Translations under genes and position numbers: made by a program
DNA from: Cyanophora paradoxa CCMP329
Taxonomy: Eukaryota; Plantae; Glaucophyta
NCBI GenBank assembly: GCA_004431415.1
Contig: QPMI01000489.1
Span: 55,710-119,709 of the forward strand
Direction of reading: 5' to 3'
DNA length: 64,000 bases
Shown: positions 23,194 to 49,449 of the stretch, one piece after another
Numbering within the stretch: position 1 is the first letter of the stretch
How the letters are laid out: every line of letters starts with the position of its first letter
The notes under the pieces: model-generated
Told to the model about the DNA's origin: nothing
The model's database searches: none
What the model saw: the letters and a program-made list of their open reading frames with translations, nothing else

Positions 23194-23598
23194 AGCTCAG
23201 CACTGCGCCGTGTCTCCAAAAAAATACCCGCGAAAAAAATCAAAAACAAATCAGAAAACAAACCATTCCCAGTAACCCAATCTTGAATATCAGTAAATCT
23301 CAGTAAGCCTCAGTAACCAAAATTGAATTAATCGAAGTTATATCATAATCTCGATTAATTATATCTTATCGAAGTTATATCTTTTTTATGCGCCGTGTCT
23401 CCAAAACAATTCCCAAGAAAAACAAACCATTCCCAGTAACCCTATTCGTATTCAACAGTAATCTCAGTAAGCCTCAGTAACAAAAATCGAATTAATCGAA
23501 GTTATATCTTAAATCTTATTTATCGAAGTTATATCATAATCTCGATTAATTATATTTAATCGAAGTTATATCCTTTTCATCCGCCGTGTCTCCCATGA
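23194..23598 (+). repeat. Left TIR of element A
   Basis: Reverse complement of 34331-34734 with local mismatches; internal ~185-bp repeat units and 5 copies of ATCGAAGTTATATC. Confidence 0.93.
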
Positions 23599-23599
23599 T

Positions 23600-24661
23600 T
23601 TAGCGTTTCGTTAAACCACTTCTCAAATTGTATCTCCTCCGAATTACATTACTCCGATTGGGTTTTATGCCTTCTTTTGCTACCAATCGATTCACTTTAT
23701 TCGTTTTATTAACCTGCTGAATCCGTTTTTGTGATGGTATCTTAATGATATCATCTTTATTCACCTTTTGCAATTCTTGTTTCTTAAATCTCCTCTTCAC
23801 TTCTTTTGTTTCCTCACCATCATTATCTTCAAGCACTTTGAAACGATTCCTATCAGCCTTTGCAACAGTGTAGACCTTCTGACTGAATTGCGCACCTTCT
23901 TTTTCAAACAATCCCTTTGGTTGCAAAACTCGAACTGTGTCTCCTGGTTTCACTTGATTAGTATCAGCCTCCTTTACACGATTGTTGTGAACAGTATCCC
24001 TCATGTAAATAAATAACTGTTTATCTTCATTTGTATACACTGCATTTGGAGAGTCATTTTTCAATGCAGAATGGGGACTGCTATTATACAAGTCAATTAC
24101 ATCACTAAGTAGATCGATCCATTTCGTGGTTCCCTTTGCTGTCATCGATTTTCTGAGATACTGTTTGAAAGTCCTAGTGAACCTATCAATTATCCCCAGT
24201 TTATCTCCTACTGTGATGTGGTCATCCTTTGCCACATCTGTGTATAGCATTACACCATGTTCACTGCACCAATTTCGGTATACTGCCTGGGAAAACTCAT
24301 TATCCCCAGAGAGAGCATTAACTTTGCCTGCTTCTTGCTTGAACCTATTTAAAATGCTCGGGATCTCACTGCTGTTTTTAAAAGGATAAACAAATCCTTT
24401 GCGACTAAGTATGTCTACGAAACTAAGCATTTTGAAAATGCCATTGTTGGCAGTCTGAAACCCTCTGAAATATGTTATATCGATTTGAAACGATCTAGGC
24501 TTTGCCACTATGCGAAGAAACGATTTGGGTTTCCTTGGTTTCTTGTAAATTTGCTGGAGTTCTGAGTTTTTGAACTTCTTTTTCAACTCTTTTTCATCAA
24601 AACTCACTTTTTCATTAATCAGTTTCTGCCTATACTTTTTGAATGATAATACACTATCCAT
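23600..24661 (-). CDS. Retroviral-type (rve) integrase, Polinton-like
   Basis: FQIDITYF, FVDILSRKGF, SGDNEF, GIIDRFTRTFK, YNSSPHSAL..SP, and an SH3-like C-terminus (GDTVRV..FEKEG). Confidence 0.93.
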   Translation of the reverse strand: MDSVLSFKKYRQKLINEKVSFDEKELKKKFKNSELQQIYKKPRKPKSFLRIVAKPRSFQIDITYFRGFQTANNGIFKMLSFVDILSRKGFVYPFKNSSEIPSILNRFKQEAGKVNALSGDNEFSQAVYRNWCSEHGVMLYTDVAKDDHITVGDKLGIIDRFTRTFKQYLRKSMTAKGTTKWIDLLSDVIDLYNSSPHSALKNDSPNAVYTNEDKQLFIYMRDTVHNNRVKEADTNQVKPGDTVRVLQPKGLFEKEGAQFSQKVYTVAKADRNRFKVLEDNDGEETKEVKRRFKKQELQKVNKDDIIKIPSQKRIQQVNKTNKVNRLVAKEGIKPNRSNVIRRRYNLRSGLTKR

Positions 24662-27600: not shown

Positions 27601-28749
27601 AACAGAAGGGGTCAAGTGTGTGTTTCTGGTCTTGGGCAGGAAAGTCAGTTCAGGGACAGGGGTCCTGTCGTCCTTTCCAATTGTAACCATGCCTAGGCGC
27701 AGTGGGTCAAGAACCTTCTCCGAAATGGACTTGAAAGAAATGCCCCAATCATCTCCTTCAACAGGGTCTCGCCCATTCACCATCTTAAAGAGTCCGTTAT
27801 AAGACCAATCGATGCGCTTGTATTTCCCTTTGGTCTTAGCCTTCTCAAATGCTCCTCCAAACCATTTGATGAGGACATCGAAAACACACTTCCCAACCTT
27901 GAATGAGTCTCCTTTCAAGAACATTTCCTTGAATGTGGTGGCTTGGGGGTTCCCTTCGTTTTTAATGAAATTCGAAATAATCATTGGAGCGTTTGTATTG
28001 TCTCTGAGGACTTGTTCATTTCTTGGGATGTATTCTTCATTATCTGTGGTGATGACTCTTTCGATTGTCATAATATCGGGGTAGGTATCTTGCTCGATTA
28101 GTTTTAGGTAGCGGAAATCTTGATTGGTCGAGTTAAACTCGATGACTGCTGCAATAAATTCAGCAATGACAGTTCCCTCTACACATGGGAACGTATTGAA
28201 GGTGGATTGAACCAGACCGAGAGCGTTCAGAAAAGCTGCCTTGGTACACTGGATACCAAAGGGGCGATTGTTCCGAAGCCTCTTCGATTCTATATAGGTC
28301 ACACCATTCTCAGTGACCCTGTTTGCATTTGCAGGGGTCTGTTCTCCCTCTTGCAACTCACGGAAGAGTCTCACATTCAGAGTGACCATGTTTCCAGGTG
28401 AGTTTTCAACAAACTCACGAAGGTTAGCCATCATCTGCTGGAAAGGAGTCAAGCGCTTCCGCTCCTTTGCTTCGGCTGCTTTCTTGTTCTGCTTCTCAAC
28501 ATTCTTAGCGGCTCTCTCAGCCCTCTTCTCCTTCTTCTCTTGCTTGCGATACAAACGAGGCTCTACGATACCTCTCAGTGTATCTCTGATATCAATCAAC
28601 TTTGGAATTCTAATTGCTTTGAAAGTAAATTCTCTCAAGAAATAGATATCCTGCTCTCGGGTCAATTTGTCTTCTACTTTTGCTTGCATGTAGTAACCAA
28701 GAATCTCATCCTGTAAATTCTTCGAAATTCGATTACTTGGTCGAGGCAT
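24661..28749 (-). CDS. Multidomain replication protein: divergent family-B polymerase + SF1 (RecD/Pif1-like) helicase + C-terminal His-Me/HNH-like finger
   Basis: Pol motifs YEFDMCKAYP, KQILVSAIGQTGK, LNTDCVY. Helicase motifs GSVPGVGKT, IVIDEICQ, TGDPYQNPPI, YANTCHVVQGDT, LYVALTRTT. C-terminus CLRC..SVDRINN..H..NC..CN. Confidence 0.85.
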   Translation of the reverse strand: MPRPSNRISKNLQDEILGYYMQAKVEDKLTREQDIYFLREFTFKAIRIPKLIDIRDTLRGIVEPRLYRKQEKKEKRAERAAKNVEKQNKKAAEAKERKRLTPFQQMMANLREFVENSPGNMVTLNVRLFRELQEGEQTPANANRVTENGVTYIESKRLRNNRPFGIQCTKAAFLNALGLVQSTFNTFPCVEGTVIAEFIAAVIEFNSTNQDFRYLKLIEQDTYPDIMTIERVITTDNEEYIPRNEQVLRDNTNAPMIISNFIKNEGNPQATTFKEMFLKGDSFKVGKCVFDVLIKWFGGAFEKAKTKGKYKRIDWSYNGLFKMVNGRDPVEGDDWGISFKSISEKVLDPLRLGMVTIGKDDRTPVPELTFLPKTRNTHLTPSVAYVKIENGHMYLLNHNIKALTQSFNGSKPKDTNVPLSSRYKIIKQRRFKEFATNPDDILRIVRSDNPKNQSSIRICYGGSLDELLREFIVVHNYQVQPGFSQIGKATHIRFTIDDKDVVVTPPGNDTDVETAFEISFKNAEYRDKFEKLNLDMYRSLINTSNKSTYNEQTINAFKNGVQTALRGLFDVDEETFDEIRYNTDIYEFDMCKAYPYIVALMIKFVPVLSKFDVFKSVTITAAEQIEEYSFYYVKLDDKYFFKAKDKNGKEYEANTYNRYKRMIIDSKYNVVPGLVLKKHFEDFKDDISIKAVLRPYKLIPNLAGNTVARILDSDLDPVDKKQILVSAIGQTGKQRNSRVKTTIFHNRDDAIEFQKQNGGEVKIYLFGETLATYEETEFVLCEEEMTEPHIYYVNQVAEKQLIDGFMPLYTTLLSIMRMCMYEKCVELAKQQIRPLALNTDCVYGIAYEPIAPVSFDRNAFENIGKFSVKCCPNFSKKFSGEKKDLEAKRIRYGKFERATDFVKIENYSYTKHSVVDEYDTTAICDLLATQKRWVLLGSVPGVGKTHMTVEYGKRFKNPLYIVPTNKRVKEMKEQGLKNVKTIYDALHLKIDESNMDEIVGGNASGLVEFDCIVIDEICQFKIGELAALDHIMNEQFPDKVYIATGDPYQNPPIQDMSVDQDEYYLDILHRLFPNELLLQVNKRHETEEDRRKVEQIRIDLFEKGLSVSEVLAKYGFKVVDELAKTDKGIVYTNRKGAEVNLALHKMNYGDNVSIYAGGIKVVAKTRIAKGGKIVHNGFVYKIVKLSKDSFIIADIANKKDEIVLSRDAVKHFALAYANTCHVVQGDTIRCKGNRVVVFETGAPFVSKKWLYVALTRTTRLDDVVIYHDNFEMAHWKVWKRENNEKISTYKDQDRAANRQFDEHDYITWDWIKQRYGKQYGHCLRCYNAMDFEDISVDRINNAVAHITKNCFLSHIKCNCAAQ

Positions 28750-28990
28750 TTCTTTGTTCACTCTATTAATATATACCTACAAAAGTTTTCTTTAAATACT
28801 TTTATACTCGCGTCAAATTTTACCGGCAAAACCAAAAGTCTCCAACAAAATATATTTAGTCGAGGGCATTCATAAAAATAACGAAGGGTTGGCTCGATCA
28901 GCGAACTCTAAAAATAACAGAATGATTTTATTTGTGGTTCCAGCGCGGTTCCCACGGGTTTCTCAGAGCAGATCGCGCTGAGAAAAACGA

Positions 28991-29248
28991 TTAACAGAGA
29001 TATTTCGATTTGCGACCACGGTTAGAATACGGGACACCATAGAGATACTTCACAAAGCAGACTGCATTGGAAGCATAGAGACGCTGGGAACTCTCAACGA
29101 TTCTCATGGCTCTGTAACACTCATCAGTATGGTATAAATCACGCATTTGCTTTGCGAATTTCGCATTATACTTTTTTAAATATTCCTGACCTTTTTCACT
29201 TTTACGATAACGATAAGTAGCACGCTTCTGAGCCTCACTGATTGGCAT
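28991..29248 (-). CDS. Small basic protein, possibly DNA-binding
   Basis: MPISEAQKRATYRYRKSEKG.. with the same upstream motif as the replication gene. Confidence 0.6.
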   Translation of the reverse strand: MPISEAQKRATYRYRKSEKGQEYLKKYNAKFAKQMRDLYHTDECYRAMRIVESSQRLYASNAVCFVKYLYGVPYSNRGRKSKYLC

Positions 29249-29597
29249 GTTGTCCTTTTCTACTCTCTTAATATATGTTAAGAAATCTTTAAGTAGTTTT
29301 TCTGTCTGTATATAGCGAATAAACTCCTGTCAAATTTTGGTCCCGATTGCAGAGCATCCAGTACGAAAGAAGATGCTGGAAAAATGATAAAGCCACCGAT
29401 ACCCAGAAGGTTCACTTGTCGGCTGCAAGTTTCTACCACTGAACCCGGTAGAACAGGTGATTAAAGTGATTTACCTATGGATATTTCACTTCGCTCTACA
29501 ACGCCTCCATAAAAATGAAGAAGTTTTGAGCCTACGGGATAGGATTGGTTACGTAGCGCTAACAATGTTTGAGAAATTATATTATTCAGATTGATCC

Positions 29598-30359
29598 TTA
29601 ACGGCGATAACCGGGTCTTATACCAAGCTTGGCGAATCCAGAGACCATAGGGGCAGCATTTGGAATCGAGTTGACTGGATCAGCCTGCGAAGTGGCAACC
29701 CGAAGGATCGATTTATTGAGGACCGGCAAATCCGTTTTGTTGGAGTCTTGGTAATCGATTGTCTTCGCAATCAATTCGGTTGGTGATTCTTTTACGACTT
29801 GAACAGGTTCGGGAATAACTTCATGGGTTACTTCTGGTTTCTTCTCAACCTTTTCCTTTGTGATTGGCTGTTCCTTGATCTTGTTTTCGTTTTTGGTCTC
29901 TGCTGCAATACCATCAACAAGACTCTTAGCATACTGATATGTTACAGATTTCAGTCCACCAGTGGTTGAACGAATAAAGTAGCGGTTGCGATGGTCTTTC
30001 TCGGAATAGGTTGAGTAGAGTCGCTCACCACCATCAAGCAGTTTCAGCAGTGTCGATGATGAGGCAACCTTGTCCTTTGTGGATGATTTGAACTGTCCTT
30101 TCTTGATTCCTCGTTTGGCTCCGGGCATGCGGTTCAGTGGGACTTGGTCAACAAGGGCATTATCATCATTACTGTTTTTCGTAGTGGCTTGGGTGAATTG
30201 GTTTCGTTCTTTATGGACTTCCTTTTCGAGGTCACCAGTTCCGTATGCAGCGAGTCCTTTCGATTTCTTATACCAGTTCCTTCCATTCTCACCATTGCCA
30301 ACATCCGCTTCAGCGGCTGGTTTGGCTAAGAAATTCTTGGGTTGAGTCTTGCGAGCCAT
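29598..30359 (-). CDS. Hypothetical Lys-rich protein (possible core protein)
   Basis: 253-aa intact ORF directly downstream of the penton gene; no family recognised. Confidence 0.6.
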   Translation of the reverse strand: MARKTQPKNFLAKPAAEADVGNGENGRNWYKKSKGLAAYGTGDLEKEVHKERNQFTQATTKNSNDDNALVDQVPLNRMPGAKRGIKKGQFKSSTKDKVASSSTLLKLLDGGERLYSTYSEKDHRNRYFIRSTTGGLKSVTYQYAKSLVDGIAAETKNENKIKEQPITKEKVEKKPEVTHEVIPEPVQVVKESPTELIAKTIDYQDSNKTDLPVLNKSILRVATSQADPVNSIPNAAPMVSGFAKLGIRPGYRR

Positions 30360-30395
30360 TTGTAATATTGAAACAAATTTATTCTACAGTATTTC

Positions 30396-31283
30396 CTATG
30401 ACCGTGAGAACGGCAGGTAGAGTCCCTCCAACTCTTTTATGACATTCTTCAATGCTTTTTTCGTCAGATCTTTATCATCTTCAGTAATCAGTTCAAGAGT
30501 CATCGACCAGTCGGTAGTAATGTCTGCTGTGGCTCCATTCCAGTAAGAAAGTCTCACATCTAGAGTCTCAACCTCAACCAAGCCATTCTGCTCGTGAACG
30601 ATCATGGAATTATTCGATGAATCATATTTTAATAGACTGCCAACCGTTTGGTCAATCTCAATTTTCGCGATAGCATTGTTATCTCGTTTGTTATTGCTCA
30701 CATATCTTCCTTTCAGTGGATCAACATGAAGAAGCAAATAGGAATTAAATAGTAGATCTAATGGCATTTCACTATCAATGTAGTGAGCATAAGTAAAGGC
30801 TCCAACTGTGACATTAGATGATAGAGGACTCGATTGGTACAGTGTGTTAGCATTTTCAAAACCACAGAAATTGGCTAAGAGTTGAGTGTTCATAGTGATT
30901 GAGAATGGAACCTCACACATGAACCTTAGAAGCAATGTTGTGGGATCATAGGTTACATAGAAATGGCGAGTGTAAGTTCCGCCACCCGCTTGATTATAGG
31001 GCTGGGATCCAATGCGAGCGATCAGATAATTCACCAGTGAATCCGGTGTATATGCACCTCGGAGGACTTCGTTGTTTCTATTCTTTGGGTTCCCAGCATT
31101 ATCGAGTGTTTGTGTGGTGAGGGTTCCTACTTCAGAGAGGTTGTAAAGATTGTGAAACATCTCAAAGTTCGTTACTCGACAGGCTCTGACCTTTTGGATC
31201 GCATAAGGGAGTCTGTATGTGAAATTAGTTGGGGTTCCATCCGATCGGTCCCTGGAATCAATATTGAGATAGTAACGCGTCAT
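30396..31283 (-). CDS. Minor capsid (penton) protein
   Basis: YLNIDSRDR..TNFTYRLP..V....V..FE..HNLYN N-terminus and AIAKI..LDVRLSYWNG..DWSMTLEL C-terminus, typical of single jelly-roll pentons. Confidence 0.82.
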   Translation of the reverse strand: MTRYYLNIDSRDRSDGTPTNFTYRLPYAIQKVRACRVTNFEMFHNLYNLSEVGTLTTQTLDNAGNPKNRNNEVLRGAYTPDSLVNYLIARIGSQPYNQAGGGTYTRHFYVTYDPTTLLLRFMCEVPFSITMNTQLLANFCGFENANTLYQSSPLSSNVTVGAFTYAHYIDSEMPLDLLFNSYLLLHVDPLKGRYVSNNKRDNNAIAKIEIDQTVGSLLKYDSSNNSMIVHEQNGLVEVETLDVRLSYWNGATADITTDWSMTLELITEDDKDLTKKALKNVIKELEGLYLPFSRS

Positions 31284-31335
31284 TCTGTTTAATAAAGCAT
31301 TTTAAAAATTTCTTTTGGTATTTTAAACATAAGAG

Positions 31336-32543
31336 ATGGCACTCACTGGAACTACCCTGAAGGAACTCCTCGTAACTCCCGGTTCCGATCAAATTTATCT
31401 TTCCCCTGGTCTCCAAATCGGAACCAACCCCAAATACAAACCATTCCTCGAGCAAGTTCGTCCCGGGGCAACACTTTTGGCTTCAAGAATACCGCTTACT
31501 TTGATCTACCTCGCAAGCAACTCCTTGCTGGTGTTTCGCTCTATTTCAAGATTGCCACTGGTGGTGGTGTAGCCTGCACCCTCCCCAATGGTGGTTCTTC
31601 TTTTATTAATGAGGTCCGTTTCGTTCATGGTGGTTTCAAGTATATTATCCCTGGTGATTGGATCACTGTAAACGCCCTGGTCGATAATGATCACGCTACC
31701 ATGAGCAGCATGTATGCTTCTCTCGGTTACTTCAAAGAGACAGATCGTGAAAGCACAGATGAAGCAATGGAATACATCGTTAGAATCCCCGCTGCTTTCT
31801 GGGAAGAAGCTTATTTCCCATTATGTACGCTAGCCGATATGCCAACAATCGAGGTTGATTTCCGTGATGCTGCGATTGTCCAAGTTCCGGCTGGTGGATC
31901 TGTAACCTTTGCGGATTGCTCTCTGATCTGCCAATTCGTAAACATTGCTTCGGCTGAGGCTGAGACACTCCTTAAAATGGCGAACGAACAAGGTGGCATT
32001 CGCATCCCGATCACAGAGGTCATTCACAAGAAGACCCGAGCGCTCAAAACCGCTGATGCTGGTGAATCTGTTGAGGTTACACTCGCTAATGTTTCTGGTC
32101 TGGTTCACTCGATTCTGATGACTGTTCGAGAGGTGAACAAACTTAACACCTACACTCACTCGGATTTCTGCGGTCATGAATCTGCTGTTAAGATTGATCA
32201 GTTCCAGATCTTCCACAACAATCGCTCCCTGGATATATCTAACAAACCCATTTCCGGTTTCCTCTCTGCTGTCAATCACATTCCTTCTCACTACAAGGGT
32301 GTTACTGTGGGCAATACCACGTACGGATTCGAGTCTGGAAATGTTTACGGAATTGTTCTTTCCAAGTCTGGAAAAGATTCGCTTCGGAACTCGGTTATGG
32401 GTTACCAGGATTTCTTCAACAGCAGCTCGAGTTACATGGATCTCACTGTTTCCGGATGCACTGATGCCGCTCCTGTTCAGGTTGATATCTATGCCCTCCG
32501 ACACAATGTTATGGTACTTAATGGCTACAACATCTCTACCTGA
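31336..32543 (+). CDS. Major capsid protein (double jelly-roll, inferred); one frameshift at ~31465 in a G-run
   Basis: Lies between penton and ATPase. Restoring one G gives a ~400-aa beta-rich ORF (FDLPRKQLL, FINEVRF, YIVRIP..FPL..IEVDF, DIYALRHNVM) homologous to the MCP at 42309-43757. Confidence 0.75.
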
Positions 32544-32640
32544 AAGTCTCGAACTTCTAAAGTTCTTTTCTTTTGTTAGTGTAGGAAGCGCAATTATTTG
32601 TAGGTGTGTACTTTATTTTGTTTTTTATCTTATTACTGTA

Positions 32641-33399
32641 ATGGATAACACAGTAAATCTTGATGATATTCCGGAGTTCGATCCGAGTAAGACGGTTCGA
32701 ATCCCGACAAGAATTTTGAATGTTGGTCGCTCCAATACAGGTAAGACAATGTTCACAAAATACTTACTTTACGAGCTTCGTGACAAGATCGATCAAATCG
32801 TTATATTTAGTTCAACAGCTTTTACTGGACAATTCAATGACATCACCCATCCCGATAACATCTATGAAGAGTGGGATGATAACATTGTTTTGAGATTGAT
32901 CAGTATGCAAAAGAAACGAATTGAGAATAACGAAAAGCGAAATAACCTAGTTATCATACTCGATGACATGATAGGTTCAAATTTGGATATGCATAATTCG
33001 GCTGTGTTATCTAAATTAGTAACGAGTGGAAGACATTATTCAATCTCGGTAATCTTTAATGTTCAGCGTTTGTGTTCTATTTCTACTACCATTCGTCGCA
33101 ATGTGGAGTTCGTTGTATTTTTCAATATTCTTGGGAACGAGAAAGAGTTCAATTGCGCCTTTGATGAGTACAATGGTGGTTTGGATAAGAAGACCTACAA
33201 GGAATTGCATAGACTATGGGGTTATAATTACCAAACTGTCATAGCTAGCCTGCAAGGTTATGATATCAAGACCTATACTGATAGAGCAGTACTCACTGAT
33301 GATGATATAAAGGGCTTTAAGAAGTTTGTGAAGAGAAAAGCAATTAAAAGGAGTCAGATGGCTCGGATTCAGCGAGAAATGACCACAATCAGTGTGTAA
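32641..33399 (+). CDS. A32-like (FtsK/HerA) genome-packaging ATPase
   Basis: Walker A VGRSNTGKT, Walker B IILDD, SGRHY, FNVQ, IRRN. Confidence 0.93.
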   Translation: MDNTVNLDDIPEFDPSKTVRIPTRILNVGRSNTGKTMFTKYLLYELRDKIDQIVIFSSTAFTGQFNDITHPDNIYEEWDDNIVLRLISMQKKRIENNEKRNNLVIILDDMIGSNLDMHNSAVLSKLVTSGRHYSISVIFNVQRLCSISTTIRRNVEFVVFFNILGNEKEFNCAFDEYNGGLDKKTYKELHRLWGYNYQTVIASLQGYDIKTYTDRAVLTDDDIKGFKKFVKRKAIKRSQMARIQREMTTISV

Positions 33400-33643
33400 A
33401 AGGACGATTTTTGAGAAATGTTGTATAATAAGGTAGCTTGAAATACTGTGGGGATTGCACAGTTGCGTAGAGCTTAAACAGCGCTTCAAACCGATATGCA
33501 GAACGTTGCGAGATCATAATCTGGTGATGAGATACAAGCGTTTGAAGATGCCGATAATCGATTTACCGAAACTTCGGTGAAACGTGAGCGAAACTTGAAC
33601 CGTGAGATCATATACCCTACTATGGTTTATTCCCCGGGTTTTC

Positions 33644-33890
33644 ATGGCGCATTTAATGGCGCATTTAATGGCGCATTTAATGGCGCATTTTATGGCGCAT
33701 TTTATGGCGCATTTTATGGCGCATTTGATGAAAAGTCCCTACTCTGTGGCATGAACCAATCAGAAGCCAGCAAATTTAAAATTAATATATGAGGTATTAT
33801 CTGAGATATAATCTGAGGTATTATCTGAGATATAATCTGAGGTATTATCTGAGGTATTATCTGAGGTATTATCTGAGATGTTATCTGTGA
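33644..33890. repeat. Two 12-bp tandem arrays (ATGGCGCATTTW x7; TGAGGTATTATC-like x8)
   Basis: Directly visible tandem repeats in the non-coding right arm of element A. Confidence 0.9.
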
Positions 33891-34330
33891 TATAAACCTG
33901 GGGAGAAGTTGAAGGGGGATACAACAAAACAAGTAGCACACCAATCAGATTGCGTCACACATATATACATATACATCATGACAATATACACATCGCCGTG
34001 ATCGTCATGATCTCCCGAATAAGCCGGTGTGTCATATATATCAGATACATATACATCATCATCATGACGTCATATATGAATATATATCACATATACACAA
34101 ATTGATATGTTATAGGTTTGACTATAAATCGATTTCCTATGATATATATGATATATATTACAGTGATATATTGACGTATATACGATTCAAAAACAATTAA
34201 AATTCTATTGTTTTTATTGTCGTTTCTATTGTTGTTTCTAGTGTAACAAATACAGTAAAAAATCGTTCAAAAAATACAGTAAAAATGAGAGGTTTTTCTT
34301 TCGAGGTTTTAACTAAACTTACTTAGTTAT

Positions 34331-34734
34331 TCATGGGAGACACGGCGGATAAAAAGGATATAACTTCGATTAAATATAATTAATCGAGATTATGATATAA
34401 CTTCGATAAATAAGATTTAAGATATAACTTCGATTAATTCGATTTTTGTTACTGAGGCTTACTGAGATTTAGTGAGATTTGGAATTGGGTTACTGTGAAT
34501 GGTTTGTTTTTCTTGGGAATTGTTTTGGAGACACGGCGCATAAAAAAGATATAACTTCGATAAGATATAATTAATCGAGATTATGATATAACTTCGATTA
34601 ATTCAATGTTTCTTACTGAGGCTTACTGAGATTTACTGATATTCAAGATTGGGTTACTGGGAATGGTTTGTTTTCTGATTTGTTTTTGATTTTTTCGCGG
34701 GTATTTTTTTGGAGACACGGCGCAGTGCTGAGCT
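34331..34734 (-). repeat. Right TIR of element A
   Basis: Inverted copy of 23194-23598. Confidence 0.93.
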
Positions 34735-35827: not shown

Positions 35828-35833
35828 ACCAGC

Positions 35834-37298
35834 ACACATATAAAAACAAATATTATTATCCCTCGCGTTCCGCTCAGGATAATAATATTTGTTTTTATAT
35901 GTGTGTTACTATAAGTTATATAAAGATATTAGCATTTTTATCATAGTGTATATCGATATGTGATATGTATTCTATCGGTAGTTCGTAAATGAATCAATAA
36001 AAATAATATAAGTATCGTGGAATCTTTGTAAAATATGTATATATAATATGTAATCGCGATATAGCCGATATGTGTTTACGATGCGCGATGTGTATCTAAA
36101 ACAACTACAATGTGCTGCTTGGGACGCGCCTCATATAGTCATGTGTATCACCTACGTAGCTTCGATAGGGTGGGGCGGGTGGGGTGAGGTGGGGCATTTT
36201 TTTGAATTCCCTAAAATGTTTCACTCCCAAAAATTCTTGGTCAAAAAAGACCCCACCCAACCCCACTTACCCCACCCTGTATTATTCTCTTTATCTATGA
36301 TTGATTTCAATGTAATTTAAATATAAATATGTATGATTGAGTATGTTAAATTAATACTGGGTGGGGTGTGAGGGTGGGGTGTGAGTGGTATCGGTATGGT
36401 AGTCCAATCTAAGATGGCACACATAAAATCATGATGTGTTATTTTTACTTCCGGTTTGATACTTATCGGACTTCGATAACTTCGATAGGGTGGGGCGGGT
36501 GGGGTGAGGTGGGGCATTTTTTTGAATTCCCTAAAATAATTCCCCTCAAAAATTCTTGGTCAAAAAAGACCCCACCCAACCCCACTTACCCCACCCTGTA
36601 TCTTTTATTATATTTATGATTGATTTCAATGTAATTAATGTATAAAGTATAGAGATTATGTATGTTAAATTAATACCGGGTGGGGTGTGAGGGTGGGGTG
36701 TGAAAGTGGTATCAGCCAACCATTTAATAATTACGATATTGAACCGACGTGATACCGACGAGATATGATATATTCAGATCGTATTAGAACGGCGCGATCA
36801 CTAAGAAAAACAAGTATCATGTGCTGTATATTTCGCGATCCCTGAATCGCGAATCGATAGGGTGGGGTGAGAAAGTGGGGCACCACCCTCACTGTATACA
36901 CTGTGATATGATCGCAATCCCGATGTAGCCTACTATGATATCGTGCGGACTTCGATAGGGTGGGGTAAGTGGGGTGAGGTGGGGCATTTTTTTGAATCCC
37001 TTAAATTTTTGGGGGTCAAATATTTTTGGGCAAAAAAGACCCCACCCAACCCCACCCTCCCCACCCTGTATTACTTATCGATACACCTCACTTATTTCAA
37101 TGTATAAACTCTATTAAATTAGATAGTAAATATGTATAGAAATAACGAGATTGTAGTATAGGGTGGGGTGTAGGGTGGGGGCAAAATGCAAACTGAATCA
37201 GTGCGATATAATTTAGTGAACACAAAGTGGATATGAAGTGGATACGAAGTGGATACGAAGGGGATAAGTGCGCCCCGCCCACTATGCAAGATACATGC
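35834..37298 (+). repeat. Left TIR of element B, with terminal 71-nt hairpin and G-run repeats
   Basis: Reverse complement of 52254-53719; I saw only one substitution and one homopolymer indel. Confidence 0.95.
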
Positions 37299-37599
37299 AA
37301 ACTACATGCGAGTTCTATGAAAACAATAACGATTTAGTCATGTATATATTTCGTATATATGTCCGCACCTCCGTGTGTGTGATCCCGCACAACTTTGCTT
37401 TTTTGTGTTTTTTTTGTTTTTTTTCGCATATCACGACATATACATATATACACCGGCGTCACCGACATATTCGGGGTCATCACATCGCGGCGATTCCGAA
37501 AACATATAGCATGCGATAGCGTAGTATTTTTACGTTGTCTGATCGTAATGTGATAAATTAGCTGTTATGGCTGATCGTAATGTGATAAGAGATCATCGA

Positions 37600-37901
37600 T
37601 AGTAGGCTGACAGTAGGCTGAGAGTAGGCTGATAGTAGGCTGACAGTAGACTGACAGTAGGCTGACAGGGTGATAGTATAGGCTGACAGGGTGATAGTAT
37701 AGGCTGACAGGCTGATAGTATAGGCTGACAGGCTGATAGTATAGGCTGACAGGCTGATAGTATAGGCTGACAGGCTGATAGTATAGGCTGACAGGGTGAT
37801 AGTATCGGCTGATAGTATAGGCTGACAGGATCAGGATTGGCTGATGACAGGCTGACAGGATCGGGATTGGCTGAGGACAGGCTGACAGGATCAGGATTGG
37901 C
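37600..37901. repeat. Tandem minisatellite (AGTAGGCTGAC 11-mers grading into AGTATAGGCTGACAGGCTGAT 21-mers)
   Basis: Directly visible. Confidence 0.9.
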
Positions 37902-38519
37902 TATAATAAAGCGTGCTCAGGTTACGGTGTCCAATCAAAAACGCACACAATTCAATCGGCGAAAGGGGGCATACGGGAAAAGCGAAAGGGGGGATACCAA
38001 AACACCGATTTTCGATGGAAATCGTCAAACGCTTGTATCTCATCACCAGCTCATCACCCTGCAAAACTGAAAATAGCGCCGTGACCGTCTTAACGAGGCT
38101 AGCACGTCCATATAAGTTTCATAGGCTCAAAAAATAATGTGTAAAATGCATAGTTTTTAAAAATGCGATCGCGACTTCGCGGAGACCCCCCCTTTCGTTT
38201 TCCGGGCATAACTTTGGACAGCAAGCCGATCTCGGCGCGCTCTCAATTGCTACGTGCTCGTAACTTGCTTCCGGGCATGTTGGTGCTAGTTTGACTAGCT
38301 AACTCAACCGTGGCAAGAAGTGCAAATTCGCCATAGGCACAAGTGCCCGAAAATCGAGGTGTCCGCTACATTCTGAGAGCCGGCGCGCGTTCCCATGAGG
38401 CTCCACTAGTCATACTTTGCAACCGTGCGCGTATAGAGTAGTTCTACGCTACTACAAAGCGGCGCGGTCTGATTCGCAAAGGGCGCGATTTGGCGGCTAC
38501 GAAAGCACCGCGGCGCCTA

Positions 38520-39962
38520 CTACTTTCGTGGTCTCAAAGTCGCTTTTCGATCGCCATTAGCTACCGGCGCTACCGTTGCTACTTTTCTACTACTTCTTAA
38601 TGTAGCTTTGGTTTCCGGCGCTTTATAGCTCTCAGTTTGATTAGAGAACGACTTATACCATCGTTGGCTATTCACGCCGCCGGATAGCTTAGGCTCGGCG
38701 GCTGTTACTAGCCGCTGTAATTCTTTATTTACGCGTTTCTCTTTTTGCACGCGATCTTCTAATAGAGTGCCTTGCGGCACAGCCGCGGCGGCTTCTATGC
38801 CCTCTCTACGCAATTGCGCATCGACCCGCGCCTCGTCCTTTGCCGCTTCTAATGCATCTACTGTGGGCGCCATTAGGTAATCCACAGCTTGGACAGGCAA
38901 TAGCTCGTGGAAGGCAAAGCGACCCTCTACGCGATTGCCGTCCGGATCAGTTAGCATAAACTTATAGCCCTCGCGCGCGGCGACAGTATATACGATTCGG
39001 CTCCAATTGTTACCGCCCTTAGCGAATGGCGTCTTCTCGATCCGTAGCCTTACTGACATGCCCGGCTGAATCTGATCCAAATAAGCTATCGATTTCTTGA
39101 ATTTCGCATCTTCTTTTTGCACTATAAGCTTATAGTGACTCTCGTTGGTCTCGGCGGGCATATAGCCGGTCGCAGAGTGCACCGTATTATTATAATTATA
39201 TTCCAGAGACGAAAGGACATCTATAAATCGCGCCGTATTATTCGCGATGCAGTAGCTCGTGATCAGCCGCCGCATTTGCTTGTTAAATGCTTCTATGCGC
39301 CCTTGCGCGCGATGGTCGGCTGTGTCCGCTATCTGATGCTCGATAAACTGATTCTCGAAATATTTGCGCATAATATCATTGCGGAATTCGCTTCCCGCAT
39401 CGCTTTGCACTTTGAAAATTGGTCTCGGCGCCTTATTTTGCAGCTGTATAAAGGCGGCTAAGGTCGACGCCGCGGACTTATCCCGCATCGGGATAATGAA
39501 CCCGACCCGTAATGTGTTCTCCATAGCCGTGAGAAAAGCACTGTAATTATCATTATACTTCGAGTAAGCGGGAAAGAATAGCAGATCAATTACGTAGGTA
39601 TCGAGAGGCTGTCGGATCGGTATAGCAGGGTCTCGTTTGCGGGATAGGTGCGGCGCATTAATCTGAACGACCTCTTGCCGGCTATACCACTCTTGCAATT
39701 TCTTATAATTCTCATTGGGCAGCTCTTGCCGTAGCTTAGTGATCCCTTTGAAACCGGTTTGCGGATCGTAGAATTTACGCGCGATTTTCGATTGCTCCGG
39801 GACAGCAAGGGCTACGGGCACGTCGCGGGGCACCAAAGCCTTTAAATCAGACCGCTTTACTATGCGGCTCTCTTTATTCTCTTTCGGCACGGGGATCGGC
39901 AATGTGCTCCCCTCTAAATCTTGCGATCGTCTTACTATTGGCGGTCTTGACATCCTTGTCAT
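38520..39962 (-). CDS. Retroviral-type (rve) integrase, Polinton-like
   Basis: FYDPQTGFKG N-terminus; DDE triad VIDLLF / QSDAGSEF / GRIEAFNK; YNNTVHSATGYMP; GMSVRLR..FAKG..NWS. Confidence 0.93.
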   Translation of the reverse strand: MTRMSRPPIVRRSQDLEGSTLPIPVPKENKESRIVKRSDLKALVPRDVPVALAVPEQSKIARKFYDPQTGFKGITKLRQELPNENYKKLQEWYSRQEVVQINAPHLSRKRDPAIPIRQPLDTYVIDLLFFPAYSKYNDNYSAFLTAMENTLRVGFIIPMRDKSAASTLAAFIQLQNKAPRPIFKVQSDAGSEFRNDIMRKYFENQFIEHQIADTADHRAQGRIEAFNKQMRRLITSYCIANNTARFIDVLSSLEYNYNNTVHSATGYMPAETNESHYKLIVQKEDAKFKKSIAYLDQIQPGMSVRLRIEKTPFAKGGNNWSRIVYTVAAREGYKFMLTDPDGNRVEGRFAFHELLPVQAVDYLMAPTVDALEAAKDEARVDAQLRREGIEAAAAVPQGTLLEDRVQKEKRVNKELQRLVTAAEPKLSGGVNSQRWYKSFSNQTESYKAPETKATLRSSRKVATVAPVANGDRKATLRPRK

Positions 39963-40025
39963 CAGACAATAAAAAAGATCAATGTAACATTTTACATGCA
40001 CGAGGCAATAGAAGGTTTTGTTTGT

Positions 40026-40631
40026 TTACGGTAAATCAGAGAAGAAGATATTAGCAACGACACCATTTCGGTTGGCTCCATTTATATACCACATGTGGCT
40101 GTTACGACTCCACTTCGCTCCATTATCTTTTAAGAATTTACGCAACGTTGTGCGGCGTGTAATATTAATTCCATGCTCTTCGAATTTCCGATGATATTTG
40201 GACAGATCGCGTTTAACATGGAAATATAGAATGTCGATCGGTTGTTGTTCATGCTCACGCTTCATGGCTCTCACTACATCTACCATGCTATACTGAGTGC
40301 ATCTAACATGACCCCAGAAATCCACAACAGGTAAATATCCTCCTGTATCATCATCGACCAGGATGATATTATACCTATATCTGTAAGGGTTCCCAGTGGC
40401 TTTAACATAAGCGAATACGTTATCTGATGATCGGATTACTATTTTATGCGGTTCTTCAATGAAGAAGCCAATCGACTTCACATCTTCTCTACGAATGTAT
40501 GTATTCACAAATGAGAATTGAACATGCTCACTATCAAAGGAGAAAATGACATCTAACAGTTCCACCATGTTTAATGACATTTCAGAGAGAGGGAAACTAA
40601 TGATAGGGTTACCATTAAAGCGATAAGCCAT
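40026..40631 (-). CDS. Hypothetical protein with a C-terminal DUF5710-like motif
   Basis: LKDNGAKWSRNSHMWYI resembles the K..GA.W....WY motif; AAAATTGA upstream. Confidence 0.55.
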   Translation of the reverse strand: MAYRFNGNPIISFPLSEMSLNMVELLDVIFSFDSEHVQFSFVNTYIRREDVKSIGFFIEEPHKIVIRSSDNVFAYVKATGNPYRYRYNIILVDDDTGGYLPVVDFWGHVRCTQYSMVDVVRAMKREHEQQPIDILYFHVKRDLSKYHRKFEEHGINITRRTTLRKFLKDNGAKWSRNSHMWYINGANRNGVVANIFFSDLP

Positions 40632-40770
40632 TGCCTTTTACTTTAAGCTGAGAAAATATTTTCCTGTTGCCTAAATGTAGCGCGTTCTCCTTAAATCATT
40701 TTGCGTTGCCCACGGGGCTTTCAATTTTTGACGATCCGCGGTGAGATTCTCACGTTTACTGTCAATAAAA

Positions 40771-41205
40771 TCAGGCTACCTGAGCGTTTATTGTCAAGAT
40801 TTTCACAATTGTTGTAAACTTTACAAGTAAATACTGTAAAACGCGCAATAAAAAAGGCGCAGTAAAAAAGGCGCAGTAAACGCGCAAATCATCGAGTATG
40901 ATTAACAGGTTACCGACTTTCTCCTTTTTCTTGATTCGCTCCTTGCGTTTCTGTATTATATTGTCGATCAGCTTATGATCGAAATCCTCATACAAATACG
41001 ATGTGACATTGTCATATTGATGGTTCCAGATCGTGGAAGCGAATATCATCACCGAATCTATCTTGTCCTCGTTGTGGTAAAGCAGGTATTTTAAGAATAC
41101 TGACTTACCTACTCCCGTTTTTCCGACAGCAAGTAAACGGCAAGGGAATGAAAGACTTGCCGGGTCGAATTCCGCAAGATCTTCTATACTCACGTTTCCA
41201 GTCAT
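40771..41205 (-). pseudogene. Truncated A32-like packaging ATPase
   Basis: Walker A VGKTGVGKS and Walker B IILDD are present. Similarity to the element A ATPase stops at ~40885, and the GRH and Q motifs are absent. Confidence 0.85.
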
Positions 41206-41252
41206 ATTTGCTTTCCCTTATAAGAAACAAAATAAAAATAAGATCTTTGTAT

Positions 41253-42203
41253 TTAGAACGACATTAAGAATTTTTTAATAGCCCCATTAACATCTTTTTC
41301 GGTGTATGCAATTCGCAGCAGGGCAATACCATTTGTTGCACAGTATCTACTTTTGATACTATCGCGCAGTTTTGTCAATTGTAGGTGCTCTTCCCCTCCA
41401 AAGAATGGAACGGCTTTGAAATGCTGAATTCCGTCATATTCGATTGCAATTTTAAGGCTTGGGATATAGAAGTCAAATCTAAGACAGTTTTGCAGTTTAC
41501 AGTCTTCGAATGTGTGTTGTGTTTCAAAATCTAGACCAATATCTTCGAGGACGTTTTGAATAATCATCTCTCCCTTCGATAAGTTGCAAGATGGACACCC
41601 AGCCCCTTCCAAATGTGAGTTTGGAGTTTGATCGAATTCTTTACCACATGAGCATATTATAGTTACTTTTGTTGCAGAAGTTTCATATGTAACCTTTCTA
41701 TAATCATATCTATTTCCATGGATTGCATTTGCTCGCTCAATAAACTCATCAGTAGTTAAACGAAGAGCTTCTGAACTTTGTTTTCGTCCACAGTCAGGAC
41801 ATCCATTTTTTATATGGATGTGGTTTCGAGGAGAGACATCGAATAACAGCCCACATCCGTTACATTTGAGCTTGACCTTGTCTTTCATTGTTTCAAACTC
41901 CACAAGGCTGTAATCATATTTATCTCCATGTATTTCTTTGGATCGTTCAATAAAGCCTTCCTTAGTAACACGGTGTGCTTGCTTGGATACCCCATCTTTC
42001 CGATTGCACGAATTGCATCCCTGACCATAGATATGTTTTGCAGGCGCTTGCAAGAACTCGCAATTACATTTCTTACAGATAATTGTGATTTTCGTGTAAC
42101 AGCCTGAGTAATTCGCTTTGGAATAATCGTAACGCCCTTCTCCATGAACTTCATTGGCTTTCTGAATGAATGTCTCCTGAGTGTAAGGTTTTCCCATCGG
42201 CAT
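41253..42203 (-). CDS. Zn-ribbon repeat (DUF723-like) + Vsr/PD-(D/E)XK-like putative homing endonuclease
   Basis: Three FI.KA..VHG..YDYS..CxxC..H..G.GCxxC repeats, then SKGE..I..L, LRFDFYIP..IEYDGIQH, D..K..YC..NGI.LLRI.Y. Confidence 0.85.
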   Translation of the reverse strand: MPMGKPYTQETFIQKANEVHGEGRYDYSKANYSGCYTKITIICKKCNCEFLQAPAKHIYGQGCNSCNRKDGVSKQAHRVTKEGFIERSKEIHGDKYDYSLVEFETMKDKVKLKCNGCGLLFDVSPRNHIHIKNGCPDCGRKQSSEALRLTTDEFIERANAIHGNRYDYRKVTYETSATKVTIICSCGKEFDQTPNSHLEGAGCPSCNLSKGEMIIQNVLEDIGLDFETQHTFEDCKLQNCLRFDFYIPSLKIAIEYDGIQHFKAVPFFGGEEHLQLTKLRDSIKSRYCATNGIALLRIAYTEKDVNGAIKKFLMSF

Positions 42204-42308
42204 TTTTGATCTTTCCTTCCCTTTACTCTATGTATTTGCCTTTTCTTTAAGTAGTTTTCCTATGGAAAACGTCAGAAAAATGACATCAAATTTTGCCCGC
42301 GAGATTCC

Positions 42309-43757
42309 TCATGCCGATATTCTACTGAGACCGTTGGCATTCATTACAAGAATATTGTGGCAGTAAGCCGAGATCTGAACACCGACCTTTGTCCAGGTGG
42401 CGAGGGGTGTGCCATTGGGTGTGAGGATTAGGAAGCTCGACGCTGATTGTGTTAGATCGACGTAGCCAGTCGCCTTCTCACCTTTGAGCGCCGCTTTACC
42501 ATCGAGAGCAAAGCAGAAGCCAGTGTAAATGGGGCGCTTGTTGCTATCGATCCAGTTGGTCATCTTGAATTTATCGGCGAGCTCCATAGCCGCGGATTGC
42601 AGCGGGACACCAGTGTTAGAATATAGGTAATTGTTGTTATTTAGAACTTGCATCACGACATTATCATCGAAGGCAAGGGTGCGGACAGTAGAGTGCCCTC
42701 CTTTATTATCGCCCAGTGTGTTTTCGTCGCGAACCTTGACAACAAGTGCGTAAACGAGTCCCGAAATTTGAGATAGTGACAGGCGCAGACCAGAGCCGAG
42801 AGCAAGACCGGTATAATCCGCAAACTGAATATCAGTGTAGGGGATGGCGATGCCAGAGGTCTTAACACGAGTAATGATTTCGCCCATCGTTTCCTCATCG
42901 ATGTTAACAGCATCCATAATAATACGAGGGGTCGTCATTTCCAGATTCGCAAGAGCAGGTGTAGGTGTGAGAGCCGCACTATCGAAAATCGCAGTGGCAT
43001 TAGGGTGAGCTAAGGTCTTAATATTTCCGAAAGCAGCCGCAACAGCAAGCGTCGTCTCGCCATCGGTCGAATTGGCAGCAGTAATTGCAGTCGTGTTATT
43101 CTGAGCGTAAACGCCAGGAACCGCCGCAGTTTCGAGCAGCGCAGGGGTTTGGAAATATACTTCGACCGCGATTTCGGATGGGAGCGCACCGATGGGCACG
43201 CCAGCATCGAGGAAGCTCGGAATTCGCATGGTAAAAATGCCACCGGCTTGGTTGCCGCCCTCCACCTTCGGTCCGAGATGCAGCCCATGCTTGCGCTTCT
43301 TTTGGTCGAATTCAGCCGGAGTGTTAGCCAGGAAAGCGTAATCTACCAGTCGCTCAGCGGGAATAATTTGCTCATACGACCCGTATTTAATGCTGACTCG
43401 CTGAACAAACGAGCCAGGAAGCCCGCGGACGAATCCAGTATTGAATAGATCAGCCGAGCAGTCAGCCGAGGTCTTGGCGATGGCAGTCAGCGCCTTCGCC
43501 GATGGAATGGTAACTTGGAGGCTAATACCATTGCACCAATTGTAGCGAGGGAGATAGAAGACCACACGAGTGGTAGCACCAGTAGAGGAGAACAGATTGC
43601 CGGGATCCGCAATTGGGAGCACCTCAACACGAGAAGGCTTGAATTGTTTATCAACGCCCACAATAAATCCGCGATCCAAAAGCATGCTCTTGTAATCCTC
43701 CGGGGTTTCCAGGACGGATTTGAGCGTGAGGCGGCTAAGCGAGGTCGTGGGATCCAT
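42309..43757 (-). CDS. Major capsid protein (double jelly-roll, inferred)
   Basis: 482 aa; VFYLPR, SFVQRVSIKYG, FTMRIPSFL..VPIGAL..IAVEVYF, ISAYCHNIL; homologous to the element A MCP and adjacent to penton and ATPase. Confidence 0.78.
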   Translation of the reverse strand: MDPTTSLSRLTLKSVLETPEDYKSMLLDRGFIVGVDKQFKPSRVEVLPIADPGNLFSSTGATTRVVFYLPRYNWCNGISLQVTIPSAKALTAIAKTSADCSADLFNTGFVRGLPGSFVQRVSIKYGSYEQIIPAERLVDYAFLANTPAEFDQKKRKHGLHLGPKVEGGNQAGGIFTMRIPSFLDAGVPIGALPSEIAVEVYFQTPALLETAAVPGVYAQNNTTAITAANSTDGETTLAVAAAFGNIKTLAHPNATAIFDSAALTPTPALANLEMTTPRIIMDAVNIDEETMGEIITRVKTSGIAIPYTDIQFADYTGLALGSGLRLSLSQISGLVYALVVKVRDENTLGDNKGGHSTVRTLAFDDNVVMQVLNNNNYLYSNTGVPLQSAAMELADKFKMTNWIDSNKRPIYTGFCFALDGKAALKGEKATGYVDLTQSASSFLILTPNGTPLATWTKVGVQISAYCHNILVMNANGLSRISA

Positions 43758-43790
43758 ATTTCGTTTTTATCTTCCGCTGAGAAATTTATT

Positions 43791-45077
43791 TTAGAAGAAC
43801 GGATTATTTTTTACAGCCACCCCGCTCAACGCATTCGTTAAATTGCCGCAATGCGGGTAGTCCTCATATAGCATTTTCGCGAATCCCTTATTAACAATGC
43901 GCTGTAAATCGTCGTCGGGCTCATCCACTCCCATAGTAATTTCCAAAATGAATGTGTGCTCACAGCTTCCGAGGAAATACCTATAACCGCTCTCCGTGAG
44001 AATTTGAACGGTTAAACTATCAAACGAAAGGCGGGTGTTAAAGTATTTCGTGAAAGCATCCGCCCCATAATTAATTAGCTCAGCATCCGCATAGGCTGTG
44101 CCTTTCGAAATCGGGATCTTAGCGAGGAATCCATTAGTAGCCTCGGTGCATGTCGTAAAAAGCGAGCAGTCCGGCTCTGTGATCTTTAAAACTATTGCAT
44201 TATCCGGTGTATAATCAGGGGCAGTGCCTCCGGCTATGCCTAAGACCAGAGCCGTCGAATTATAATTGCGGAATGCATCACCAGCTGAGTAAACGACACC
44301 GCTCCCAGCGAAGGCTGTGTAGCCCGATCCGTTGTATTGATCTATCATTATGTTCTCTCTGATCGATGTAAACCCGAGAAGAGTCATCGTGCGATAGGCG
44401 AGCACCTTTCTTTCATTCGCAGTAGACGAAGTGGCATTACTCGGACCATATTTAGTGAAAGCTATGTAGACATAATCACTCGAATAAAAGCATATGGCAT
44501 TTAATGTGCTCTCAAAACGGCATCTCACCACCGGGTAAAAGGTTCCCCCTGTCGATGCGTAGCTTGGATTAATTTTTGTGTCGATCATATCCTTGATGTA
44601 GTTGCCAGTTCCATTTTTCGTTAAGATGTTATCGATTGCAGTGGCAAGGTCGGTTCCAGTCGAGTATGTGCCAGGAGGGATCGTAATTGCTACGTCTCTG
44701 TATCGGGTATATCTTCTGAAAGTGTTTAGGTAATCAGGCGGTATATAGTTGCCTTGGTCGCCGAAATCTATCGCTTTGTATGCTTCGTATATTGCAGTTG
44801 CCTGTGTTTCTCTTATTTCCGCAGTGGCACCATTGAGCTGACCGCTCGAAAATCGGTAAGGAAATGATATGAAAATTGTATTAGCATCATCGGCTTTCGT
44901 CTCCCCGATTTCAGTATAGAATTGAGGGCTTGGAACCGTCGGAATCGTGTTGGAAAATTCGATCTGTCGCACAGCGATGCTCTTCACATTGTGGTATTGC
45001 TTTGGAAGGGTCACCTTATAGGAATGAGCCGAGCCCTCTGATCGATCACGGCTACTGATGCTGAGATACTCGCGCAT
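43791..45077 (-). CDS. Minor capsid (penton) protein 1 with a large insertion
   Basis: YLSISSRDR..SYKVTLPKQYHNVKSI..IEFSNT; FLAKIPI..LTVQILTESG..EHTFILEI. Confidence 0.8.
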   Translation of the reverse strand: MREYLSISSRDRSEGSAHSYKVTLPKQYHNVKSIAVRQIEFSNTIPTVPSPQFYTEIGETKADDANTIFISFPYRFSSGQLNGATAEIRETQATAIYEAYKAIDFGDQGNYIPPDYLNTFRRYTRYRDVAITIPPGTYSTGTDLATAIDNILTKNGTGNYIKDMIDTKINPSYASTGGTFYPVVRCRFESTLNAICFYSSDYVYIAFTKYGPSNATSSTANERKVLAYRTMTLLGFTSIRENIMIDQYNGSGYTAFAGSGVVYSAGDAFRNYNSTALVLGIAGGTAPDYTPDNAIVLKITEPDCSLFTTCTEATNGFLAKIPISKGTAYADAELINYGADAFTKYFNTRLSFDSLTVQILTESGYRYFLGSCEHTFILEITMGVDEPDDDLQRIVNKGFAKMLYEDYPHCGNLTNALSGVAVKNNPFF

Positions 45078-45104
45078 TTTATTCTTTATTAATAGGAAAT
45101 AAAA

Positions 45105-46078
45105 ATGATTCGGAAGCCAGTTAACGATTTCTATAATGGCAAGTTTACGAGGGTCAATGTTAATATCGATTCTATTGAGCGCAGTGCAGGGCACCCGGGA
45201 GAATATACAGTAAAGCTTTCTCAGCGACTTCTGAACGTAAAAGGGGTGCGCATTGCAAGCGCCGAGCTCCCAAACACGATTTATGCTGTCACCGATAATT
45301 CCAGAGGCGTGACCATACAGGGAATGACGAACAGCATCACCTTTTCCCCTTTCCCTGATATAGGAAACTACACCCCCGCGATTTGGGGATATGGTAATAA
45401 GAACTTAGGCTATTCGGGCAGCTTTGTAGATGTGGATCCTCTCACAAGCGAAAGCGTCACAGTCTACTACAAGTGGCTCTATAATCCAGCGACTATGAAA
45501 ATTACGTTTTATTCGAGCATTCCCCTCGCACTGAGCTGTGCACATGACGACTTTGCAAGGTTCCATGGAATGATCAAAGGGCAGATCTACCAAACAGCAG
45601 TCGCAGAAAAAGGAAGCCCTCATTATCAGGTCTCGTATGCTGATGTGACCCCATTCCACTTGCAGTATTCATTCTTGCAAGCATTCGAGGGTCGCTCAAT
45701 ATTCCCGCCTAATTTACCAATATCCGAGAAATTCCTATACAATGCAGTGACCTTCCCGAATGCGATTAATCTAAATCCGACCCCTATGTTTACCTACAAA
45801 TTAAAGAGTTTACTCCCTTTTACGACAGGTATATGGTGGCAGCAAAGACAGATGAGGGCGGAAATGCAAACCTCGCTAAGATCCCACTAACCAGCCCCTT
45901 GGGATCGTTTGTTTACTACCTGACATTCCGCAGAATCGATACTGTGGAGTTCTTTAATTCCCACGATCAGGCTTATGACATAGACACCCTCACAATTAAA
46001 TGGCTCGACGCCTACAATAATGTAGTCAACTTTAATGGCGTTAATCACAGCTTTATATTAGAGGTGCTATCGGGTTAA
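45105..46078 (+). CDS. Minor capsid (penton) protein 2; frameshift at ~45783 in a C-run
   Basis: VNIDSIERS..EYTVKL..NVKGVRIASAELPNT; after the shift LAKIPL..LTIKWLD..VNFNGVNHSFILEV. Confidence 0.78.
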
Positions 46079-46096
46079 AATAATCTTATATTACAA

Positions 46097-49420: not shown

Positions 49421-49449
49421 TTTTTGTAGTATGCCTTAATAGAGAAATA

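Follow-up and report, generated by a model that had tools for sequence, protein, structure and literature searches.

It is not yet settled how polinton-like viruses (PLVs) replicate their ends when they lack a protein-primed polymerase, and the matter bears directly on an element in the genome of Cyanophora paradoxa CCMP329. In the stretch of DNA analyzed here (64,000 nucleotides of contig QPMI01000489.1, hereafter the window), two elements, A and B, both interrupt one 1032-codon open reading frame (ORF) for a UL9-like (Herpes_ori_bp) helicase, which contains no stop once the insertions are removed. All three relatives of this ORF are C. paradoxa proteins (43-48%). The first element encodes its own replicase. 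Is the second copied without one and, if so, what do the hairpins at its ends contribute?

Elements A and B

23194-34734, element A, a polinton-like virus with AG...CT ends and a 5-bp target-site duplication (TSD)
24661-28749, pPolB-SF1 helicase fusion of element A, 1362 aa, Tlr1-like type
35834-53719, element B, a 17.9-kb integrated polinton-like virus

The two elements are related in their capsid, ATPase, integrase, and minor capsid genes. The capsid gene of A lies in pieces at 31336-32543 of the window sequence, and its protein is nearly the same, by eye, as a C. paradoxa entry in Table S2 of Bellas et al. 2023, where 366 MCP genes are given for the C. paradoxa genome (PMC10120064). The 1362-aa protein of A gave no PDB sequence match. 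Around both A and B lies an outer mobile element (21479-54458) that carries imperfect hairpins of 51 bp at 21479-21529, 21620-21672, and 54408-54458, and with a YqaJ exonuclease gene at 20823-21479.

The ends of element B

35828-35833, left copy of the TSD, ACCAGC, 6 bp
35834-35904, left terminal palindrome of two 28-bp arms around a 15-nt loop
35834-37297, left terminal inverted repeat (TIR), ~1464 bp, two differences from the right TIR
36165-36280, 36485-36599, and 36955-37069, three imperfect palindromes of ~115 bp in the left TIR, mirrored at 52484-53388
37298-38519, non-coding spacer containing tandem repeats of 11, 21, and 30 bp
52255-53719, right TIR, inverted copy of the left TIR
53649-53719, right terminal palindrome, mirror of the left; the + strand here ends in the terminal 3′-OH
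53720-53725, right copy of the TSD, ACCAGC, 6 bp

The first-pass annotation of this DNA described the ends of B as mirrored 71-nt hairpins with a perfect 28-bp stem, and the sequence, the arm count, and the predicted folding all bear this out. The left palindrome consists of an arm (35834-35861), a loop that includes GCG-TTC-CGC (35862-35876), and the exact reverse-complement arm (35877-35904); on the + strand of the right palindrome, the purine-rich loop is located at 53677-53691. At both ends, the perfect 28-bp arms begin at the first base past the TSD, and the left stem appears to be 29 bp long through chance pairing of the flanking C with the next inner G. The 28-nt arm occurs in four exact copies in the window, with zero expected from 100 shuffles, while the 71-nt palindrome folds as DNA at -26.7 kcal/mol (z = -13.7), which none of 200 shuffles equals. 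Rfam returned over the hairpin only miRNA models, far below their gathering scores. The same folding analysis of the ends of A revealed no terminal hairpin (z of +1.3 and +0.7).

The edge of B is supported independently by an empty site. In four of four sequencing runs (X1, X4, X6, and X16, out of 20 listed), a contig joins the left flank to the right flank with a single ACCAGC, which confirms both the edge of B and the 6-bp duplication. The filled junction of this insertion site was seen in X1 only, among the contig pieces listed (32 of 59). The TIRs are 99.9% identical, and B has a GC content of 43% vs 62% in the host. Each of the ~115-bp palindromes in the TIR sets G-run arrays against C-run arrays on the two flanks of an AT-rich spacer and folds with z between -4.8 and -5.0 (0 of 200 shuffles each). 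We infer that this layout is origin-like, and G-quadruplexes could possibly form in it. Elsewhere in the window, there is an isolated 18-bp perfect stem with a 17-nt loop in an AT-richer patch (16249-16301) as well as a MITE-like small nested inverted-repeat element (59962-61282) with three 15-bp TGACG-containing repeats per arm and an internal 10/21-bp tandem array.

Gene content of element B

38520-39962, - strand, rve-type integrase, 480 aa, D-D-E triad by inspection
40026-40631, - strand, ORF201, 201 aa, weak DUF5710 lead at the C-terminus, 5′ part in two alleles across the B family
40771-41205, - strand, A32 packaging ATPase, partial, ending just past Walker B at ~40885
41253-42203, - strand, homing-type endonuclease gene (PHROG HNH endonuclease, E 9e-81)
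42309-43757, - strand, major capsid protein, double jelly-roll, 482 aa
43791-45077 (- strand) and 45105-46078 (+ strand), two probable minor capsid genes, N-terminus in common with ORF295 of element A
46097-52206, + strand, probable fibre/attachment module of 1107, 132, 345, 223, 115, and 87 aa

The integrase resembles that of A (26%, E 2e-18) and a PHROG transposase (E 2.4e-6), and its Pfam rve match is below the cut-off (E 0.014). For the capsid protein, the Atlas gives 0.98 to the Capsid_N/Capsid_NCLDV clusters, and a low-confidence structural model (pLDDT 41) matches the PBCV-1 and SGIV capsids in Foldseek (E 2e-7). Its closest relative is a C. paradoxa protein (41%) that is named with matching length in the table of Bellas et al. 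2023. The two ORFs at 43791-46078, which we take to be minor capsid genes, gave no Pfam family match above cut-off. The one on the + strand is split by one missing base. Contigs of all four runs have an extra C behind 45780, and the gap in the window may be a private mutation or an assembly error. In the fibre module, there are weak H_lectin and C1q matches together with 54-bp repeats. Here, the C1q-like gene (51373-51977) is a variable attachment module, with many alternative alleles across B copies (10 among the 15 of 19 joints listed). None of the 14 ORFs, several of them unassigned, gave a Pfam match to a maturation protease. Collectively, the double jelly-roll capsid, the integrase, the long TIRs, and the 6-bp TSD identify B as an endogenous polinton-like virus.

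Absence of a replicase and truncation of the ATPase

It was also noted at first pass that no polymerase, primase, or helicase is recognizable between the TIRs of B, and this holds in Pfam searches of 14 ORFs, in PHROG searches of 12 ORFs, and in a motif scan with A as positive control. The PolB motifs A, B, and C and the SF1 motifs are found in no B gene, while the same patterns recover all of them in the 1362-aa protein of A. This protein, compared with B, gave no match below E 0.5. B thus lacks the protein-primed family B polymerase by which Polintons/Mavericks are defined in the strict sense. There is likewise no Pfam or PHROG match for an HUH Rep nickase, and the pattern matches for it are out of frame with B genes. 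Of the 14,958 nt that separate the TIRs, ORFs occupy 13,171, and the sole gap of more than 140 nt is the 1.2-kb repeat-rich spacer. Beside the integrase, ORF201 is the largest ORF without an assignment (Atlas score 0.80; DUF5710 with a Pfam E of 0.079; allele joint at 40472-40633). As a hidden replicase it was rejected: its model has a pLDDT of 45, no Foldseek match reaches E≤0.001, and the best VIA Z is 5.5.

The packaging ATPase (Pox_A32 in Pfam, E 2.3e-5) is cut. It aligns to the ATPase of A only up to residue 112 of 254, its C-terminal half is absent in any frame, and a 14-bp unit is repeated three times (40838-40880) after the break. A degenerate C-terminus behind the break was considered and dismissed (p 0.32-0.68 vs shuffles in three frames; no Pfam match). 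The break is on the integrase-proximal side, where A carries its replicase. Given the missing replicase and the cut ATPase, the B copy in the window, judged from its sequence, cannot replicate by itself and probably cannot package by itself.

The B family across sequencing runs

Does this hold for one copy or for a family? Read depth was expressed in units in which the lowest-depth alleles equal one copy, and these units are not a true copy number; the sequencing runs have near-constant depth ratios and were counted as one genome. The capsid and integrase genes are present at ~21-35 units in four runs (X1, X12, X16, and X10), and the sequence behind the ATPase break (40747) is present at 19-23 units. 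Both sides of the break are therefore common to the family, though depth does not show that they are adjacent. The nuclease gene region (41210-42350) reaches ~6 of ~22 units, that is, about one-quarter of the B copies, and the two ORF201 alleles account for 7-9 units each.

The tip and the inner TIR form a single unbroken contig at ~30 (X1) and ~24 (X16) units, with no other letters listed; this uniformity is in contrast to the interior, where 963 places are variable. In X1, at least three different outer flanks join the tip. The expectation that the hairpins are conserved among relatives is therefore supported for the ~24-30 ends that have them in common, although not every capsid-bearing copy is accounted for, as ~44 units would be expected if ~22 capsid-bearing copies had a tip at both ends. 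No relative with flanking DNA was found among viral contigs, metagenome contigs, prokaryote genomes, and phage records; a word-indexed search returned zero capsid matches and one integrase match for B, and a full scan returned two capsid relatives.

The cut ATPase raises the possibility that a deletion gave rise to the B copy or its subfamily, and that sisters of full length have the entire ATPase and, between it and ORF201, a non-pPolB replicase (e.g., a primase-helicase) that the hairpin serves. We give this reading nearly an even chance. It would explain why the ATPase stops past Walker B, with the 14-bp triplication at the break and on the very side that holds the replicase in A. Moreover, in a July 2026 preprint on Halocafeteria seosinensis, replication genes are usually integrase-proximal, and the palindrome-tipped elements described there do encode non-pPolB replicases (10.64898/2026.07.28.741278). 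The listing of joints is also insensitive: most copies lack the 1.1-kb nuclease gene, and yet none of the joints listed (15 of 19) reflects its presence or absence. Against a deletion stand the 19-23 units at 40747 relative to 21-35 for capsid and integrase, and the finding that none of the loose ends listed (24 of 536) falls at the break, neither of which shows adjacency. On balance, a deletion derivative is about as likely as a replicase-less B family. It is compatible with hairpin priming and would alter the notion that the family as a whole is without a replicase.

Orientation of the loop and solo copies of the tip

In the rolling-hairpin model of AAV replication, both loop orientations are predicted (PMC8195378). 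The contigs were read in 31-letter words and the arm has 28 bp, and a loop in the opposite sense would show up as a branch in the graph at each end of the 71-mer. X1 and X16 each have a single contig that leads from 35834 across the hairpin to 36020 or 36130. In X6, the tip contig is interrupted solely by a variant with one mismatch (depth 5), and the inner contig of X4 starts in the same loop sense. A second orientation was thus seen in none of the four runs, in contigs that drop rare variants, and no contig in these runs links the loop, read in the inverted sense, to the inner TIR, as a replication intermediate would. For 25 independent ends at 50:50, the chance of finding all in one orientation is 6e-8; the B ends, however, share descent. 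Flip and flop forms, which the first-pass annotation had proposed to look for, are hence not what the data display, and the single orientation speaks against replication of the AAV flip/flop type. There are parvovirus ends that retain a single orientation. Our literature search returned no paper on such single-orientation ends.

The orientation also bears on a possible role of the palindrome in excision or resolution. Here, the tip would extrude as a cruciform, and a junction nuclease of the host or the virus would cut it to give a linear genome closed by hairpins, as in poxviruses, with replication from the internal G-rich palindromes. Arms that are 82% AT would favor extrusion, and three origin-like palindromes do lie further inside the TIR. 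Poxvirus junction resolution gives both loop orientations, and the same would be expected here, where one is seen. Two 31-mers in X4 (35875-35904; depth 4 and 10.5), in which the inner arm is followed by a base other than the G of the TIR, resemble a hairpin left on the host flank, but they are absent from X1, X6, and X16 and may be library fold-backs. We therefore regard resolution as improbable.

The X4 31-mers are relevant in another context. Both arms show the same end sequence, and it had been suggested that each 71-mer looks like a mini-element, which the integrase might move on its own; the two 31-mers are compatible with solo copies of this kind. They may represent a solo hairpin, a hairpin left on a flank, or a library fold-back. 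With no inner-arm branch in X1, X6, and X16 and no solo copy in the window, independent mobility of the 71-mer finds no backing in three of four runs, and we consider it very improbable indeed.

Strand asymmetry of the tip

The two strands of the tip differ in how their loops may fold. On the strand with the 3′-OH, the loop can form a T-G wobble, a tandem G-A/A-G in a pyrimidine-GA-purine context, and a 3-bp stem with a GAA triloop; on the opposite strand, it has pyrimidine mismatches and a TTC loop. The folding energies are -27.8 kcal/mol for the 3′-end strand and -26.7 kcal/mol for the other strand. Tandem sheared G:A pairs in a pyrimidine-GA-purine context are a stable DNA motif (PMC10085684), and GNA triloops are stable, less so with a G:C closing pair (PMC3201870). 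The GAA triloop of B is closed by G:C, the weaker closing pair. This asymmetry, read post hoc from one sequence, points to a preference for folding of the strand that would be able to prime. Compensatory changes in the arms cannot add to it, as every tip seen has the same sequence and no diverged relative complete with its ends came to light.

The uniformity of the tips raises the question of whether the palindrome is a frozen accident, in which fold-back repair in one founder was copied to both TIRs and to all descendants, and the integrase needs the outer arm only. One origin would suffice for identical tips and for a single loop orientation, TIRs this alike indicate that the copies are young or homogenized, and accidental annealing is named as an alternative in the Halocafeteria preprint. 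Nevertheless, the same layout recurs there in five subtypes of unrelated stramenopile elements and tracks non-pPolB replication (10.64898/2026.07.28.741278), A has no palindrome, and the loop of B is not random-looking but favors the 3′ strand. We judge an accident unlikely.

A model for copying and integration of element B

We propose that B, without a replication enzyme of its own, carries a tip that folds on the 3′-end strand, primes host or helper polymerases, and doubles as the integrase attachment site, and we consider the chances for and against this model evenly balanced. B would leave the chromosome, or its ends would unwind. The 3′ arm would then fold onto the inner arm and be extended, resulting in a hairpin-closed end. 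The folded arm:arm duplex would be the same 28-bp duplex as that of an open end, so the rve integrase would nick, or use the 3′-OH, at the hairpin base and join it to target DNA. Host gap repair would subsequently fill in both the 6-bp duplication and the 71 nt in their unfolded form. Joining and repair in this manner would keep the same loop on the joined strand, which fits a single orientation without AAV-type hairpin transfer. The packaging ATPase might be supplied in trans, e.g., by sister families of PLVs that are still intact, A being one. A role for the surrounding UL9-like helicase in B is speculative.

A replicase-less, hairpin-tipped B beside a pPolB-bearing, hairpin-less A is what a hairpin-primed, helper-replicated element predicts. 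The idea that B is such a satellite, put forward at first pass, thus agrees with the family-wide hairpins, the lack of a replicase in B, and the lack of a hairpin in A, while its flip/flop part does not stand. The orientation also weighs against priming itself, as hairpin-closed dimers would normally give both orientations over many rounds, and the model requires single-round copying or selection of one isomer. In its widest form, the model describes a capsid-encoding family of ~20 copies without a replicase and a working ATPase, a satellite of other PLVs or of the host, whose hairpin-closed ends prime and are joined directly by the integrase, fixing one orientation. We put this form forward tentatively and think it rather unlikely.

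Relation to known elements

Palindromic tips and a hairpin-priming model are already published. In the Halocafeteria preprint, palindromes in TIRs beside TSDs are described for virophage subtypes 1, 2, 5, and 6 and PLV subtype 4; they are linked to non-pPolB replication genes, and hairpin priming is proposed (10.64898/2026.07.28.741278). Similar to these elements, B has a palindrome inside the TIR that adjoins the TSD, an rve integrase, no pPolB, and a position nested in other mobile DNA. Those elements have non-pPolB replication genes, whereas B has none in the window copy; B also differs in its cut ATPase and probable glaucophyte host. The palindrome illustrated there is 52 nt long, while the tip of B has 71 nt and an asymmetric loop with internal structure; the available text of the preprint does not take up loop orientation. 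New in B are the lack of any replicase, the fixed loop orientation, and the strand-asymmetric tip.

Bellas et al. 2023 found many endogenous elements without a detectable polymerase; these usually keep a helicase, whereas B has none, and the available main text contains no match for hairpins or end structure (PMC10120064). The Tlr1-like PLVs of Krupovic et al. 2024 have in common with B an rve integrase, a DJR capsid, an A32 ATPase, and long TIRs with internal repeats. They encode a pPolB-S1H fusion, which B lacks, and B has hairpin tips; A is of this Tlr1-like type (PMC11071308). With AAV, B shares terminal palindromes and, as proposed here, priming from their 3′-OH and helper dependence. However, AAV has Rep nicking and flip and flop ends, while B lacks Rep, shows a single orientation, measures 18 kb, and is integrated by an rve integrase with a 6-bp duplication (PMC8195378). 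As far as the available texts go, Bulzu et al. mention C. paradoxa PLVs once, with no match for hairpin or palindrome (PMC12220804), and PLV end hairpins do not appear in PMC11296320, 10.64898/2026.10.13.758929, or 10.1101/2025.10.09.676808. Our literature search, of incomplete coverage, returned no report of a hairpin-tipped PLV without replication genes or of its loop orientation.

Implications

Elements A and B form a natural pair in one host gene: A has a pPolB-helicase and plain ends, and B has hairpin ends and no replicase. The palindromic-tip pattern is thereby extended to a probable glaucophyte. Moreover, the single loop orientation is a constraint absent from the published hairpin model and argues against simple hairpin transfer of the AAV type. 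If the whole B family is without a replicase and an ATPase, it would constitute a satellite of satellites in a cultivable alga, in which the structure of the ends would be directly testable.
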